A DNA stretch of 62,961 nt, counting the filler, from Perkinsus chesapeaki ATCC PRA-425 (taxonomy: Eukaryota > Protista > Perkinsozoa): the NCBI GenBank assembly GCA_013115145.1. It is 4 parts of 4 records of this genome, joined end to end, with 100 filler letters (N's around TTAATTAATTAA, not from the genome) between each part and the next. Parts side by side here need not be neighbours in the genome. Positions count along the whole stretch, not along the records: positions 15,641 to 29,261 come from JAAPAO010000778.1; positions 29,362 to 37,061 come from JAAPAO010001014.1; positions 37,162 to 62,961 come from JAAPAO010000518.1; 1 more part is not named here. The stretch is one strand, 5' to 3'. Under the pieces are notes generated by a model. It ran no database searches, had not been told where the DNA came from, and was given only the letters and a program-made list of their open reading frames with translations. Position numbers and translations under genes: made by a program. How positions within the stretch are numbered: position 1 is the stretch's first letter; each line of letters begins with the position of its first letter. Positions 17,582 through 50,830 of the stretch are shown here, piece by piece.

Positions 17582-17935
17582 TGGGGGCAGTCAAAATATA
17601 ACTATTTTTTCCTATTCCACAGCAGCGTATATTTTGAAGGGCACCTTACTGGTAAAACGAAACCGGTAAAATGAGCTTCCAATTTCTCAGGGAATTGAAT
17701 TTCCTCGGACGAATGGCAAAACCCCCGTTGGGTGGGGAACTCAAAGCGTGTGATTGACTGTAGAGAAGAAACGGCTGCACAAATATGAATGCAGCGGGTA
17801 TATAGGGATGAGTGATGATCGGAGGTTCGATCCCGGCATCCTGCATCTTTAATTCGTAGATGCTGGAACGGGAATACCGATAAGGTGGTTGGCAAAGTAC
17901 AGAAAGTGGCGAAGAGACCAAGAGGTGACCAAGAG

Positions 17936-19830
17936 TTAATCCTTCTTCAGGAGATTGTATAAATCATTAAGACAGGCGGGCTGTTTGTTCTGAAGATATA
18001 TAATGGATGATATGATCATTATTGGCTATATTATCTTACTTGTGCTTTATTAACTATCCAAGTTGGTATGTTACCTTTAACATCAACTTGATTATACATA
18101 GTAACAGTTAACTCATTTGTTGATGGATTAATCTCCATAGCATATCCGGCAAATTTAACATCACATCGAACATAACCAGGAAGGACGCCATTCTCAGGAT
18201 ACTCTAAAATAAATATATAAAATAAATAATGCAAATGAAGGATAACTACTCACCTGGAAGTTCTACGGACTTTGACGAGATAATCCAGAGGTTGTCGTTG
18301 ATTTTCTGCCGTAAAATAGCATACACTGCATCACGCCCACCGACTTTCATCATGCCTGAAATCGATTAGAAATGAACACCAGTGGAGTTCTCGCGGTCAC
18401 CCTTGAAAGCGCTGTAATGTAGATCCAACCTTCTCTCTGGTTCGTCAATAATGGCTCTCTTCAACATCTTACCTGAGACACACTGTCAAAGACAACTTGG
18501 AAAACTGCGGTTGCGAGAGCTTCAATTTTCAAGTGCATTAATTCACTGCATTGAATATGGTAATGTGTGCATCGAATTCTAGGTTTTTAACTCATAATTG
18601 ATAATCAAATACGAAAGCACGCAAGTTCGAATCCTGGCCGCGATAACTCTGAAAATAAGGGCTCACCATCAGCAGTTTGGTTGTCAAATTTAGATCTCGA
18701 TTCGGGGTCCATAAGGATATCCATCAACTTCTGCAAATCAATCTCATTTTCTCCAAAGGAGCGATAGCCCATAACAACCTGCACGCATGCACAAGCTCAA
18801 ATTTGCAGTGATGTGATGCGCCAACCTGGAAGGCGTCGTCGGTCTGCGGCTTGACCATGAGGGTGACTGGACCGGCCTTCCCATTTGGATTGAATTCGGC
18901 CTTCCCTTCTGGTGATAAATAATAAAGGACCTTTCCTTGGGCCTCCATCGCCGCATCCAATAGTTTCTAATAAATATGCACCATCCAGGGATCGAACCCG
19001 CGACCTACCTGTGTCTCAGGCGTTAACGAAGGACCTGTCATTGCCTTCGGGGTCTCCTGAGTCACATCACCAGTTTCAGAAAGCAGCGCGGAGGTACGCC
19101 TACCACTTCACCATTCTCGAGCTGAGGTTGAGTAATAACCGATATACAATCGAAGAAGTCTTCACTCGTCCATGACTGGACATGCGTTAGTCGACTCTGA
19201 GAAAAGCAGCAAATGCGCTGATGTAAGATCTGACCGTCGATCGAACAGGCATGCGGAACGTCTAATTCACCTCAGAGCCTTCAGTGGTAGCAGCGGCTGT
19301 CTCCGCAACGATCGCAGGTTCCTGAAGAAAACACAAAGGTGGATAACAACGAAGTTCAGTCATCACGAAATCTTCCTTCCGGGATTTTCCCGCCACTTGA
19401 AGAAGCAAATGTACTAGCGCGTGAGAGTACCATTTTTTAGCAACTACTCAAATTTCACGAAGCGGGAGTCCGGAAAATTTCCCGGTGAATTTTCAGGAAG
19501 AATGCCAGGCAGTAAAGTTGACCGGGGAACGGCAAGTTAAGCGACTTGACGTTTACATAATAATACGCTGCAATATTTCCCAACAGAAATGCCAATGGTG
19601 GCGTCTGGACAAGGAAAAACCCTGATTTATAGACCTTCGGAAATATCTCGATTTGGGGACAGCCCGCGACACAACGGACGTACATGCTCGGAGTGGCGCT
19701 GTTTCTCGGCAGGGACAGTCAAGTCCGAAACAGCAATCTCAAATTCGAAATGGTTCCCTGAAGGACTTCTTCTGAGCTGTTTAGGATCTAGCACGACTGT
19801 TCGAGATTCCTTTGAAGATGCGCAACCCAT
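17936..19830 (-). CDS. START-domain lipid-binding protein, paralog 1 (N-terminus MGCASS)
   Basis: Spliced exons read GGRDAVYAILRQ..SKSVELP|EYPENGVLPGYVRCDVKFAGY..QVDVKGNIPTWIVNKAQ, the START C-terminal signature. Confidence 0.8.
18967..19008 (-). other. 42-nt intron consisting of a tRNA 3'-half-like sequence (B-box)
   Basis: GTAGGTCGCGGGTTCGATCCCTGGATGGTGCATATTTATTAG. Removing it restores the frame PETQ|KLLDAAME. Confidence 0.75.
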
Positions 19831-20374
19831 TGAAAATAATTTGAACTATTAATGACTTGGGAATCATCGAGTGTTACTCCGCCGGTAGTAACTGTAACAT
19901 ATCAGAGACGGTCAAGAACGCAGGCCTGGGCTCTAGGAAAGCCGAGGGGCACGAAGGCACACCACATGCCCCCAGCCATCCTGCATTTAGCTTTCCTTGA
20001 TTCACTAGTAACATATTTCCTATCGAGTTTTCCATTATCTTTTCACACTAGGAATGCTTCTTAAGCTTCGGGAAACAGATTTTGACGTGGCCGGATCGCT
20101 CCCTCGCTAAATCCGTTTCGAAGCTCTAGTCTGTCTTGCCGGTTAAAGATCCAAAAAGACACAAATTATTTCATCTTCCTTGAAAAGAGAAGAACACAAC
20201 TCATTCGAAGCGTCGAAACTGATGAACTGGATTGCACGACTGCCTCGGTGAACAGCTGAATAAACGGCAAAGATACGACGGCCTTACGGTGATGATGCCG
20301 CACGGGGAAAGATATTTTACGGGTGGCTACATCAACAAGAGCATAAACGTGCACGAAGCTCTGGAACAAAAACA

Positions 20375-48631: not shown

Positions 48632-49746
48632 TTACCCGAACTGCGTATATGCTCCTCCATGCGTTCCCGGTCCCGGACCAATCTCTAACAGTAACAGTAT
48701 CACCGCCCACCCAGTCACCCCTAATACCTTTCCCACTGCCGATAGACCTTCGCCGAGGTCGAATGCTAAATTGAGGTGCAGCAGCTCCGTATCCTGAGTT
48801 AATTCTAGATCCATCAACTGCAGCAATACCCTTACGTGTCCGTGGGCCCAAACATGTCCCTAGCTCATATGCTCCCGGACCAGGACATCTTGCAGAGTCT
48901 GCAGCCAACCTACTAGCCGAAACAAAGCTGGATGAGCCTATTGGGGGCCTGAAGATTCCCTATTACCAATAAGTATACCGAATCAAGTACCTCTGAGATG
49001 TTCCAAAGCCCCAACTTGGTGCCTTCTCATGACCTGATATCGTATTTGCCATCGAGGCTTGGTATCTGCTATGGAGATAATAATAGACTAGAAGCCTTGG
49101 CGTACTGTCCGGGCCCTGGAACATCTGATAAAGTGGATCGACTGCAGTGCCATCGGGAGCCAGTAGAGTAGCTATGAGATGACTCAGCCATAGAACGCTT
49201 ATCTACTTCACCTTGGCCCTCCCAAATGACCCGATACATTATACGTTCCCGGTCCCGGACTACTAAGTCTTCTGCTACCGCTGATCGACGGACGGGATGA
49301 CCGGCCAAATGCGTACCTACTATATACGATAGTTAAAGTAAAGTATATATTGATTTACATTGTGGATTGTGAAGCACTATGTGGTGTGTACGCTCCTGGC
49401 CCGGGTATAGGGGTCCTATTAGCACCGCCCTTACGGCCGAAAGGGTCTCTGGGGGCAGTACCAAACCCAAATTGAGGGGACGAATGAAATCTACAGGATG
49501 CAATGAAAAGGGATGGCGCAGCTATGACTACCTGCTAACAACAGCTGATACCCTCTCACTAGAATATGCTCCAGGACCGGGCATATTAGCCGCTTTGGAG
49601 TCCACTAGAGCTGATGGCCCTCGACCCTAGAAGACAACGAGTCAACCTATTCGGAATCTTTTAATATTCCTCACTTTGATAGACCATTTAGGCGCCTTTT
49701 GTATAGATGATAGACCGGTTAATAAGGGATAAGATGATGAACTCAT
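48632..49746 (-). CDS. STPG/SHIPPO-1 repeat (ODF3-like) flagellar/cytoskeletal protein
   Basis: Repeated PGPGAY/PGPGQY units with P.F/W.FGT..R linkers across exons. Confidence 0.8.
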
Positions 49747-50233
49747 CTACCACTACCGCCTACTACCGCTGGTCGATATAAAACGCCCACCGCGCGCGAT
49801 CCCCTATTTCTTGCTCTCTTAACAAATCTTACATTTACCTAACGCAATCGTGCATAACCGATATTCCATAAGACTTATTTCATCCTCTCTCGAATGTTTA
49901 GACTCTGCGTTCTCGTAGCTTTCACAGCGAGCATCTCTCACGCATCGATATTTAGGCGTTTGTCGAGCAGCTCAAGCAGCCCTACGCAGAAATTCAAGGT
50001 AAAGTAGCTCTAGTGGCTCCTTATTGTAGTGTTTCCAGCAGATGAACGGTGGACGCATTGACAAGAAAGATATGCCCTCTGAGGGCCGTACTCAATACAG
50101 ATATATCCCCGATGAAAAACATGGTAAAGACGTCGCTGCATGGTCATTCTATCTTAAGGGCAATACGACATCAACTGAATCCATCCATTGTCCAAAGCAC
50201 ACATTCTATTAGTAAGCAGCTCATACCGATTTC

Positions 50234-50830
50234 TTGTTATTGATTCACTTCAGTGATACTTATGAAGGTTTCGGTGAGCTCACTAGTTTCAGCCACAAAG
50301 ACAGCGGTCTAGATTCAATCCTTGTGAAGGACCGTGTCTTCCCTATCCCAATTGACCCCTTTTTGAACACCCGTTTGGACGAAATCCAGTTAACTGACGG
50401 AGCCGGCACAGACGTTATGAAGTTGTTGGCCAGGAGATTGGGCAGCACTACTAACACTAATAAACGCACGGGCTCGAAAGGGAGCCCTAAGGTTATTGAT
50501 AACATGCCCGACCTTTTCGCAATCATCTGTGAGATATATGAGCATGCTAACAGCAGGGCCACCTTTTGAGCTTAGCGAAGATATCTCCGTTGTTGTTCAT
50601 GTGTTATATGTATGAAGTGGTGTGATGTAAAATACAGTATTGAGTTTAAAGTAAGGCTGTGTACGATGAACGTTGTCTACGTTGCAGGCAATGACTGCCG
50701 CTCATAGACTCCCGAATATGTCGGACCTCGGAGGATCTGTTAATGAGCTAAGGTTGATGGGTTCGATTCCTGGACCTGCCATACCTTTTCGCGCATACCT
50801 CCGATCAGAACATTACTTCAGTATCACCAT
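50234..50830 (+). CDS. Hypothetical multi-exon protein
   Basis: Open exon IHFSDTYEGFGELTSF..LARRLGSTT and downstream GT-AG-bounded segments. No family recognised. Confidence 0.35.

Follow-up and report, generated by a model that had tools for sequence, protein, structure and literature searches.

Short interspersed nuclear elements (SINEs) and retropseudogenes derived from transfer RNA (tRNA) are dispersed, lie in either orientation, carry the internal boxes of RNA polymerase III (Pol III) and include 5'-truncated copies. Introners are elements coextensive with a short intron and found several times per gene. TFIIIC sites that consist of a B-box only or are borne by pseudogenes have been described from yeast, worm and human (PMC3395662, PMC6950938, PMC12409998). 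Yeast extra-TFIIIC (ETC) sites have a 10-base 3' extension (PMC3395662), and a model of yeast tauB bound to DNA covers +37 to +76 of a tRNA gene and shows contacts to bases both in the variable-loop region and downstream of the box (PMC11724288). In the worm, extra-TFIIIC sites coincide with putative tRNA pseudogenes and are over-represented in introns (PMC6950938). In Perkinsus, more than 500 genes across five tRNA types have been counted for P. marinus (PMC3706591), and the "tRNAs detected" by LOTTE-seq, a unit undefined in the available part of the source, number ~2,960 in P. marinus and 3,500-3,680 in P. olseni (PMC9550989 supplement). Here we describe a stretch of 62,961 nucleotides from Perkinsus chesapeaki ATCC PRA-425, henceforth referred to as the window, which holds 17 tRNA-gene relics (12 with an exact B-box and five with one mismatch) and one intact intronic tRNA-Pro gene. 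The relics are real, tRNA-derived and not confined to introns, and they are most likely selected at the DNA level.

The exact B-box motif GGTTCRANYC was observed 13 times compared with 1.68 expected, a count reached by none of 100 shuffles. The window is composed of four contigs (1-15540, 15641-29261, 29362-37061 and 37162-62961), and the joins between them (15541-15640, 29262-29361 and 37062-37161) are artificial runs of N with a central 12-nt palindromic linker. Exact matches per contig were 0, 7, 1 and 5, compared with 0.5, 0.4, 0.2 and 0.7 expected. A preliminary description of this DNA had reported the same 13 matches, all of which were recovered after two coordinates, off by 2-6 nt, were corrected to 18989 and 39833. 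The span of 17.8-50.8 kb in which it placed all matches is not a single locus, because it extends over three contigs joined by N-linkers. Its four near-matches (18624, 21421, 22045 and 43463) proved to be real relics, and it had overlooked both the relic at 44168 and the intact tRNA-Pro(AGG) gene in a predicted 130-nt intron. The match in coding sequence, at 39833, was rejected as a relic since its flank score is worse than 82% of the background, as for a chance match. Weak sites at 2203, 31114, 33709, 51902 and 54550 were also rejected on flank score, and among the 46 one-mismatch sites about 10 arise as echoes, on the opposite strand, of a box that is nearly palindromic. The first contig (1-15540) contains apparently intron-rich genes yet no B-box relic; the relics cluster by gene or region.

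A tRNA origin of the relics is supported by a gap-free register over positions 44-78 together with five whole-length copies. Sixteen candidate relic sites aligned to tRNA numbering across these positions without a gap. Outside the box, G45, G46, C48, C50, C62, G64, G65, T74, T76 and T78 were each conserved at p<0.001 and A73 at p=0.002 among 15 relics, the recent paralog 22044 being left out. No column past position 78 was conserved in these 15, and thus no tRNA-unrelated SINE body or tail was found. A flank-only leave-one-out profile placed 15 of 15 relics in the top 2.6% of the background and also uncovered the relic at 44168. The 5' half, with A-box and anticodon loop in register, was found in exactly five of the 17 relics (23538, 26471, 43463, 47465 and 47902), each of which scores above at least 99.9% of 20,000 randomly chosen places on a profile built from 85 viral tRNAs; this agrees with the earlier claim that at least five copies keep tRNA numbering while their stems have decayed. 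The remaining 12 are without an A-box. An encoded CCA at positions 74-76, as in a retrocopy of mature tRNA, was present in none of the 17. The intact tRNA-Pro(AGG) gene is the sole Rfam match in the window, and the exon upstream of its host intron weakly matches the end of a ferric-reductase domain (E 0.019, below the curated cut-off), with an in-frame continuation.

The genes concerned are four tandem START-domain paralogs (S1-S4), a pyrophosphatase gene, a zinc-finger/methyltransferase gene, a ferric-reductase-like gene and a long, probably fused model with a Cid1-type polymerase domain (P0004). [quoted passage not shown] The intron set comprises 75 annotated introns from seven gene models, and introns in the 37-63 kb contig are based on one of these models (P0004) and one hand-made prediction. 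The features are listed below with strand and with orientation relative to the host gene; X1 and X2 are two runs guessed to be RNA.

17816..17850, plus strand: relic core (tRNA positions 44-78), ~100 nt past the S1 stop codon, antisense.
18616..18650, plus strand: relic core, A52 variant, in the 194-nt S1 intron 18473-18666, antisense; the intron is skipped in X1 and X2 contigs.
18967..19008, minus strand: 42-nt S1 intron consisting of a tRNA 3' half (42-73 and a T-rich end), sense; spanned by aligned proteins of P. olseni and P. marinus.
21413..21447, plus strand: relic core, A52 variant, in the 465-nt S2 intron 21183-21647, antisense; the intron position is common to those of 18616 and 24149.
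22021..22063, minus strand: 43-nt S2 intron consisting of a tRNA 3' half, A52 variant, sense; paralog of 18967-19008.
22842..22876, minus strand: relic core, sense, 33 nt upstream of the S2 start codon.
23160..23194, plus strand: relic core, just past the S3 stop codon, antisense.
23487..23564, plus strand: whole-length relic with A-box, anticodon loop and B-box that fills the 94-nt S3 intron 23474-23567, antisense.
24140..24186, plus strand: 47-nt S3 intron consisting of a tRNA 3' half, antisense.
26454..26531, minus strand: whole-length relic, sense, 30 nt upstream of the S3 start codon; possibly within a putative intron of the 5' untranslated region (5'-UTR).
31876..31910, minus strand: relic core, sense, between the P0001 stop codon and the next likely start, which lie a short distance apart.
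39442..39513, minus strand: intact tRNA-Pro(AGG) gene in the predicted 130-nt GT-AG intron 39431-39560 of the ferric-reductase-like gene, sense.
42678..42712, minus strand: relic core at the 5' end of the intron starting at 42716, sense; the intron is 689 nt in the P0004 model and would be 41 nt with a candidate AG at 42676.
43446..43523, minus strand: whole-length relic, T57 variant, that starts at the 5' splice site 43524; the intron runs to 43479 in the P0004 model, and an acceptor at the in-frame AG at 43455 would bring the B-box inside it.
44154..44204, plus strand: 51-nt P0004 intron with a tRNA 3' half, C56 changed, antisense.
47448..47525, minus strand: whole-length relic, the best preserved, filling the 100-nt intron 47436-47535, sense; called Asp-GTC by ARAGORN at a lowered threshold, where output below -ps90 is mostly noise.
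47887..47962, minus strand: whole-length relic filling the 83-nt intron 47887-47969, sense.
50752..50786, plus strand: relic core, ~50 nt past the likely stop codon of a plus-strand gene, sense.
24299..24348, plus strand: probable extra relic, outside the 17, that takes up a 50-nt S3 intron, antisense; it is shifted by 1 nt and has one mismatch (uncorrected p 0.005-0.008 over 64 introns).
22259..22301, plus strand: probable extra relic, outside the 17, in a 43-nt S2 intron; its B-box is broken by 3 mismatches, and it matches the relic at 23538 at 18 of 20 letters (uncorrected p 0.0025 over 62 introns).

Introns hold 11 of the 17 relics, and the other six lie in gene flanks outside coding spans. 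No relic was found in 9,172 exon bases compared with 11 in 11,021 intron bases (p=0.0014), a count that assumes the in-frame acceptor at 43455 for the relic at 43463, whose box is placed in an exon by the source model. Exact matches fall within introns at 18989, 23538, 24157, 42695, 47465 and 47902. Those outside the coding span follow a stop codon (17824, 23168 and 50760), lie between a stop and the next likely start (31893) or precede a start codon by ~30 nt (22859 and 26471, both possibly within 5'-UTR introns). The preliminary description was correct that a single match is coding but not that most are intronic, the numbers being 6/13 in introns and 6/13 outside the coding span. Its phrase "introns built from tRNAs" is true of 8 of the 75 annotated introns and does not extend to the third of the relics that are non-intronic. 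These eight near-pure relic introns include four of 42-51 nt, which are 3' halves starting at 35-42, and four of 70-100 nt, which are whole tRNAs; the element is thereby coextensive with the intron in 8 of the 11 intronic relics. Relic-free introns measure either 39-66 nt (44 introns) or at least 120 nt (20 introns), with none of 67-119 nt. Relative to the host gene, 10 relics are sense and seven antisense. For six relic introns the call is supported by proteins of P. olseni and P. marinus that align across them, and for five by a P. chesapeaki model only. Contigs of the presumed RNA runs skip 18473-18666 (X1 and X2) and 18967-19008 (one X2 contig, with 21 nt on its short side) with canonical ends, both joints carrying the tool label "between: not known". 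Among the joints listed, at low cover, there is none for the introns at 22021, 21183, 24140 and 23474, and no RNA run was listed for 42,000-50,900.

The RNA function of the relics is gone. T-stem pairs 49-51 make up 36 cells in the 12 exact relics, and 11 of these were Watson-Crick, compared with 794 of 945 in 315 reference tRNAs, with 25% expected by chance. Cloverleaf covariation was absent, with no gain over slid controls, and none of the nine relics tested folded beyond shuffles (z -0.98 to +1.37). A tRNA covariance model scored the relics at E 0.14 at best, Rfam finds none of them, and tRNA-Pro alone has the paired-stem cloverleaf of a functional tRNA. The ends of the 100-nt relic intron 47436-47535 are complementary over ~9-11 nt, prolonging the old acceptor stem, and its overall fold is no better than shuffles.

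The flanks of the box carry the mutation bias of the strand on which they lie. Flank G+T was 0.55-0.80 in 9/9 sense relics and 0.30-0.50 in 7/7 antisense relics, 22044 again left out (means 0.67 vs 0.43, p=5e-4), and the direction is that of the C-poor sense strand of ordinary host introns; G-T mispairs numbered 13/36 vs 2/28. Because the flanks took on this host-strand bias, the relics are old and decayed where they lie. In a neutral steady-birth simulation 24.5 of 36 T-stem pairs were expected to be intact (P(<=11) = 1.5e-5), and exact-box copies were predicted to be outnumbered by copies with 1-3 mismatches, which was not observed. Sites with top-1% flanks numbered 12, 7, 4 and 19 for 0-3 mismatches, compared with 0.1, 0.5, 3.7 and 21.7 by chance, the 7 one-mismatch sites including the real tRNA and one opposite-strand echo. 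Window totals of boxes with 1-3 mismatches showed no excess over shuffles. A change of C56>T or C61>T beside a flank of the relic kind occurs at one site at most, where 3.5-10.5 are expected depending on the assumed rate. The intron at START residue 217 contains an antisense core in S1, S2 and S3 (three of four paralogs). S3 has diverged from S1 and S2 at 72-73% of four-fold sites, and its remaining introns show no significant alignment with those of either; the residue-217 core of S3 matches those of S1 and S2 each at 16/26 flank letters.

Another recurrent word was observed in the introns of P0004, a model at 40292-48306 with 1,345 aa and 31 introns that looks like several genes fused around the Cid1-type polymerase domain. 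The exact 12-mer GCTTCGCTCCGC is present at 41024, 41931 and 43720 on the minus strand and at 46581, 46704 and 47771 on the plus strand, in six different introns of 46-66 nt within 6.8 kb. The copies, three per strand, have unrelated flanks, and no other exact copy exists in the window; at one mismatch, 7 matches were found against 0.15 expected, for a word picked after being seen. This suggests that conserved DNA words of more than one kind reside in these small introns. Introns 45172-45211 (40 nt) and 48124-48167 (44 nt) have an identical 25-mer in common, like a repeated intron, and 13 letters of this 25-mer recur in an S2 exon at 22225.

The reading we favor, in which we place about even confidence, is that the relics are old tRNA-gene copies decayed in place. 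Selection would have preserved their B-box core because a protein binds this DNA, the most probable one being TFIIIC in an ETC-like role. The orientation independence and the lost fold point to double-stranded DNA as what is read. Among the three options of the preliminary description, the putative retention of B-boxes as DNA sites, of which a chromatin boundary would be one candidate kind, fits best, given both orientations, in-place decay, the spared box and the tauB-footprint-like span. The conserved span 44-78 roughly matches the yeast TFIIIC tauB footprint, and a B-box with conserved flanking bases, as in ETC sites, is present in the relics. That 12 of the 17 are without an A-box is no more than suggestive of sites which, like ETC sites, would work without TFIIIB, Pol III or a transcript. 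The large Perkinsus tRNA gene family is the likely donor. Under the proposed mechanism, a very large and mobile tRNA gene family would drop copies into non-coding DNA, with the tRNA-Pro in its 130-nt intron as the start state. Loss of RNA function would then let the stems erode, as in the whole relics of 70-100-nt introns, after which the 5' half would be eroded or deleted to leave an intron of 41-51 nt made of splice signals around the 35-bp core. Putative TFIIIC occupancy may serve the host gene in nucleosome positioning or as a barrier, a guess from yeast and worm. More doubtful is the extension to thousands of intragenic TFIIIC docking sites, in which pre-tRNA copies and 3' halves would insert, become introns and then be kept, such that at least a tenth of introns would hide such sites alongside other intron-borne DNA words such as GCTTCGCTCCGC.

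Several points weigh against selection on the box. The relics were detected via the B-box itself, the tests correcting for that use phage, not Perkinsus, tRNAs, and the box-sparing tests rest on small numbers and related paralogs. A sense-strand C>T/A>G bias spares most B-box letters regardless, and the P value for C56/C61 depends on the assumed C retention (3e-4 at 0.57, 0.014 at 0.69 and 0.14 at 0.8). The mismatch spectrum of 12:5:0 also fits young copies of many masters (d=0.05), a fit countered solely by the strand bias and the paralogs. The residue-217 cores of S1 and S2 match at only 11/26 flank letters with no significant local intron alignment, and independent arrival is possible because these flanks match so poorly. 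Boxes are damaged in two counted relics (43463 and 44168) and in the two probable ones, and T33 and A37/A38 are retained in whole relics though outside the promoter. The non-tRNA 12-mer behaves alike, so a more general process may be at work. A role of the box as branch point was considered and dropped, since antisense copies keep the box equally.

Introns may instead have been created, in an introner-like manner, by insertion of tRNA-gene or pre-tRNA copies, whole or as 3' halves, into exons, with B-box retention possibly added later; we regard this as a tentative possibility. Creation explains the tight fit between relic and intron equally well, as seen in the 8/75 introns that are almost pure relic, the pre-tRNA size of the four at 70-100 nt and the lack of any relic-free intron of 67-119 nt. 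The T-run also serves as the 3' splice tract in sense copies, and the absence of CCA from all 17 relics is as expected of genes or precursors. However, all three relic-bearing START positions that could be compared (residues 133, 217 and 275) are shared in phase with relic-free paralogs saturated at silent sites, a comparison confined to these 3 intron positions in the START genes. Junction repeats averaged 1.9 nt in 11 relic introns compared with 2.2 nt in 64 others (p=0.65), although age could have erased them. Six of the 17 relics lie outside coding-region introns, five of those six being 3'-only, splice-site offsets vary between copies, other short introns show no general core residue (3/44 at p<0.05), and unrelated relic introns score within the shuffle range when introns of up to 135 nt are compared all against all. 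Creation before the START duplications, followed by later loss, may nevertheless have occurred. The preliminary proposal of an element that creates or colonises introns is thus borne out for colonisation, while creation finds no support in the shared START positions or in the junction repeats, which show no excess.

Neutral debris, that is, tRNA pseudogenes or copies of a tRNA-derived SINE master noticed where the box happens to survive, is unlikely. A ready source exists in the huge tRNA family, damaged boxes exist, the mismatch spectrum fits young copies, and the unlinked relics at 23168 and 44168 match at 21/26 flank letters (the best unlinked pair), as for one isotype or subfamily. The strand-biased decay nevertheless shows age while the boxes are intact, the neutral simulation gives P=1.5e-5, no excess of relics with 2-3 mismatches and no shared body or tail beyond position 78 was found, and selection on a transcribed master cannot act on the 12 of 17 relics from which the A-box is absent. 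It is very unlikely that the relics are sources of tRNA-like small RNAs, whether released from lariats or transcribed by Pol III. Five relics do keep A-box, loop letters and spacing and score there as high as the intact tRNA-Pro, and a four-T run follows position 73 in 8/17. Only one of the five whole relics has that run, however, and this third option of the preliminary description is further disfavored by the lack, in 9/9 relics, of a fold beyond shuffles, by the missing covariation, by the covariance-model E of 0.14 at best and by the 7/17 relics that are antisense to the intron RNA.

Other features of the window were also recorded. START paralogs share patches that are 94-97% identical, introns included (17936-18235/20375-20674, 18824-18974/21878-22028 and 22671-22826/26286-26441), and are otherwise diverged; these patches are likely due to gene conversion. 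An inverted repeat of 37 nt with a 1-nt spacer and 95% complementarity lies at 51048-51122. A subtilase gene (Peptidase_S8) at 56111-57502 has its frame broken by a stop at 56735-56737, and an open frame at the contig end, 14919-15540, gives the impression of a retroelement integrase tail. Metagenome scans (P0001 and START alignments) and viral contigs (P0013) yielded no relatives of these loci.

If the boxes are selected, TFIIIC-type sites would be far denser and more intragenic here than described in yeast or worm, and the origin of ETC sites from tRNA genes, as well as a DNA-level reason for the keeping of introns, would become testable by comparative genomics alone. All stages from an intact tRNA gene to a 42-nt B-box intron are visible side by side. 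If the copies instead created introns, they would represent an intron source of which no description was found in the literature searched. On the tree of life Perkinsus lies beside the dinoflagellates, a group with highly unusual chromatin, and because of this kinship its chromatin signals are of wider interest. Full-text searches, with subscription papers and bioRxiv supplements outside their reach, found no description of intronic tRNA relics in Perkinsus and no joint mention of Perkinsus and TFIIIC; the available parts of PMC3101222, PMC7789003 and PMC13685798, the latter two of which name introners or introner-like elements, contain nothing on intronic tRNA relics.

Compared with known systems, the relics resemble introners in being coextensive with short introns and present several times per gene, but the copies share a 35-nt core only, their positions are shared with relic-free paralogs, junction repeats show no excess and some copies are non-intronic. 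The features of tRNA-derived SINEs and retropseudogenes given above recur here, with A- and B-boxes together in 5/17 relics, whereas no tRNA-unrelated body or tail, no CCA and no near-identical unlinked copies were found in the window. The expanded tRNA family and Dada transposons of Perkinsus (PMC3706591) belong to the same genus and are the likely donors; the available part of that paper counts intact tRNA genes and A-box insertions and does not mention intronic or truncated relics. Extra-TFIIIC sites of C. elegans on CeRep3 (PMC6950938) are likewise tRNA-gene-like A/B-box relics, enriched in introns, with a proposed DNA-level role without Pol III. As far as the available text of that paper shows, they comprise 504 sites supported by chromatin immunoprecipitation, nearly all of which have both boxes and 214 of which belong to a single repeat class, whereas 12 of the 17 relics here are B-box-only, no single repeat family is evident, several make up an entire intron and TFIIIC binding is putative, at a density of 17 in 63 kb in a window picked for it. 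Yeast ETC sites (PMC3395662, PMC11724288, PMC12409998) share with the relics a B-box without an A-box, conserved bases outside it and no need for an RNA product. In the available parts of those papers the yeast sites are eight and intergenic, whereas the sites described here are many, intragenic and visibly tRNA-derived, with discriminator and T-run in register.

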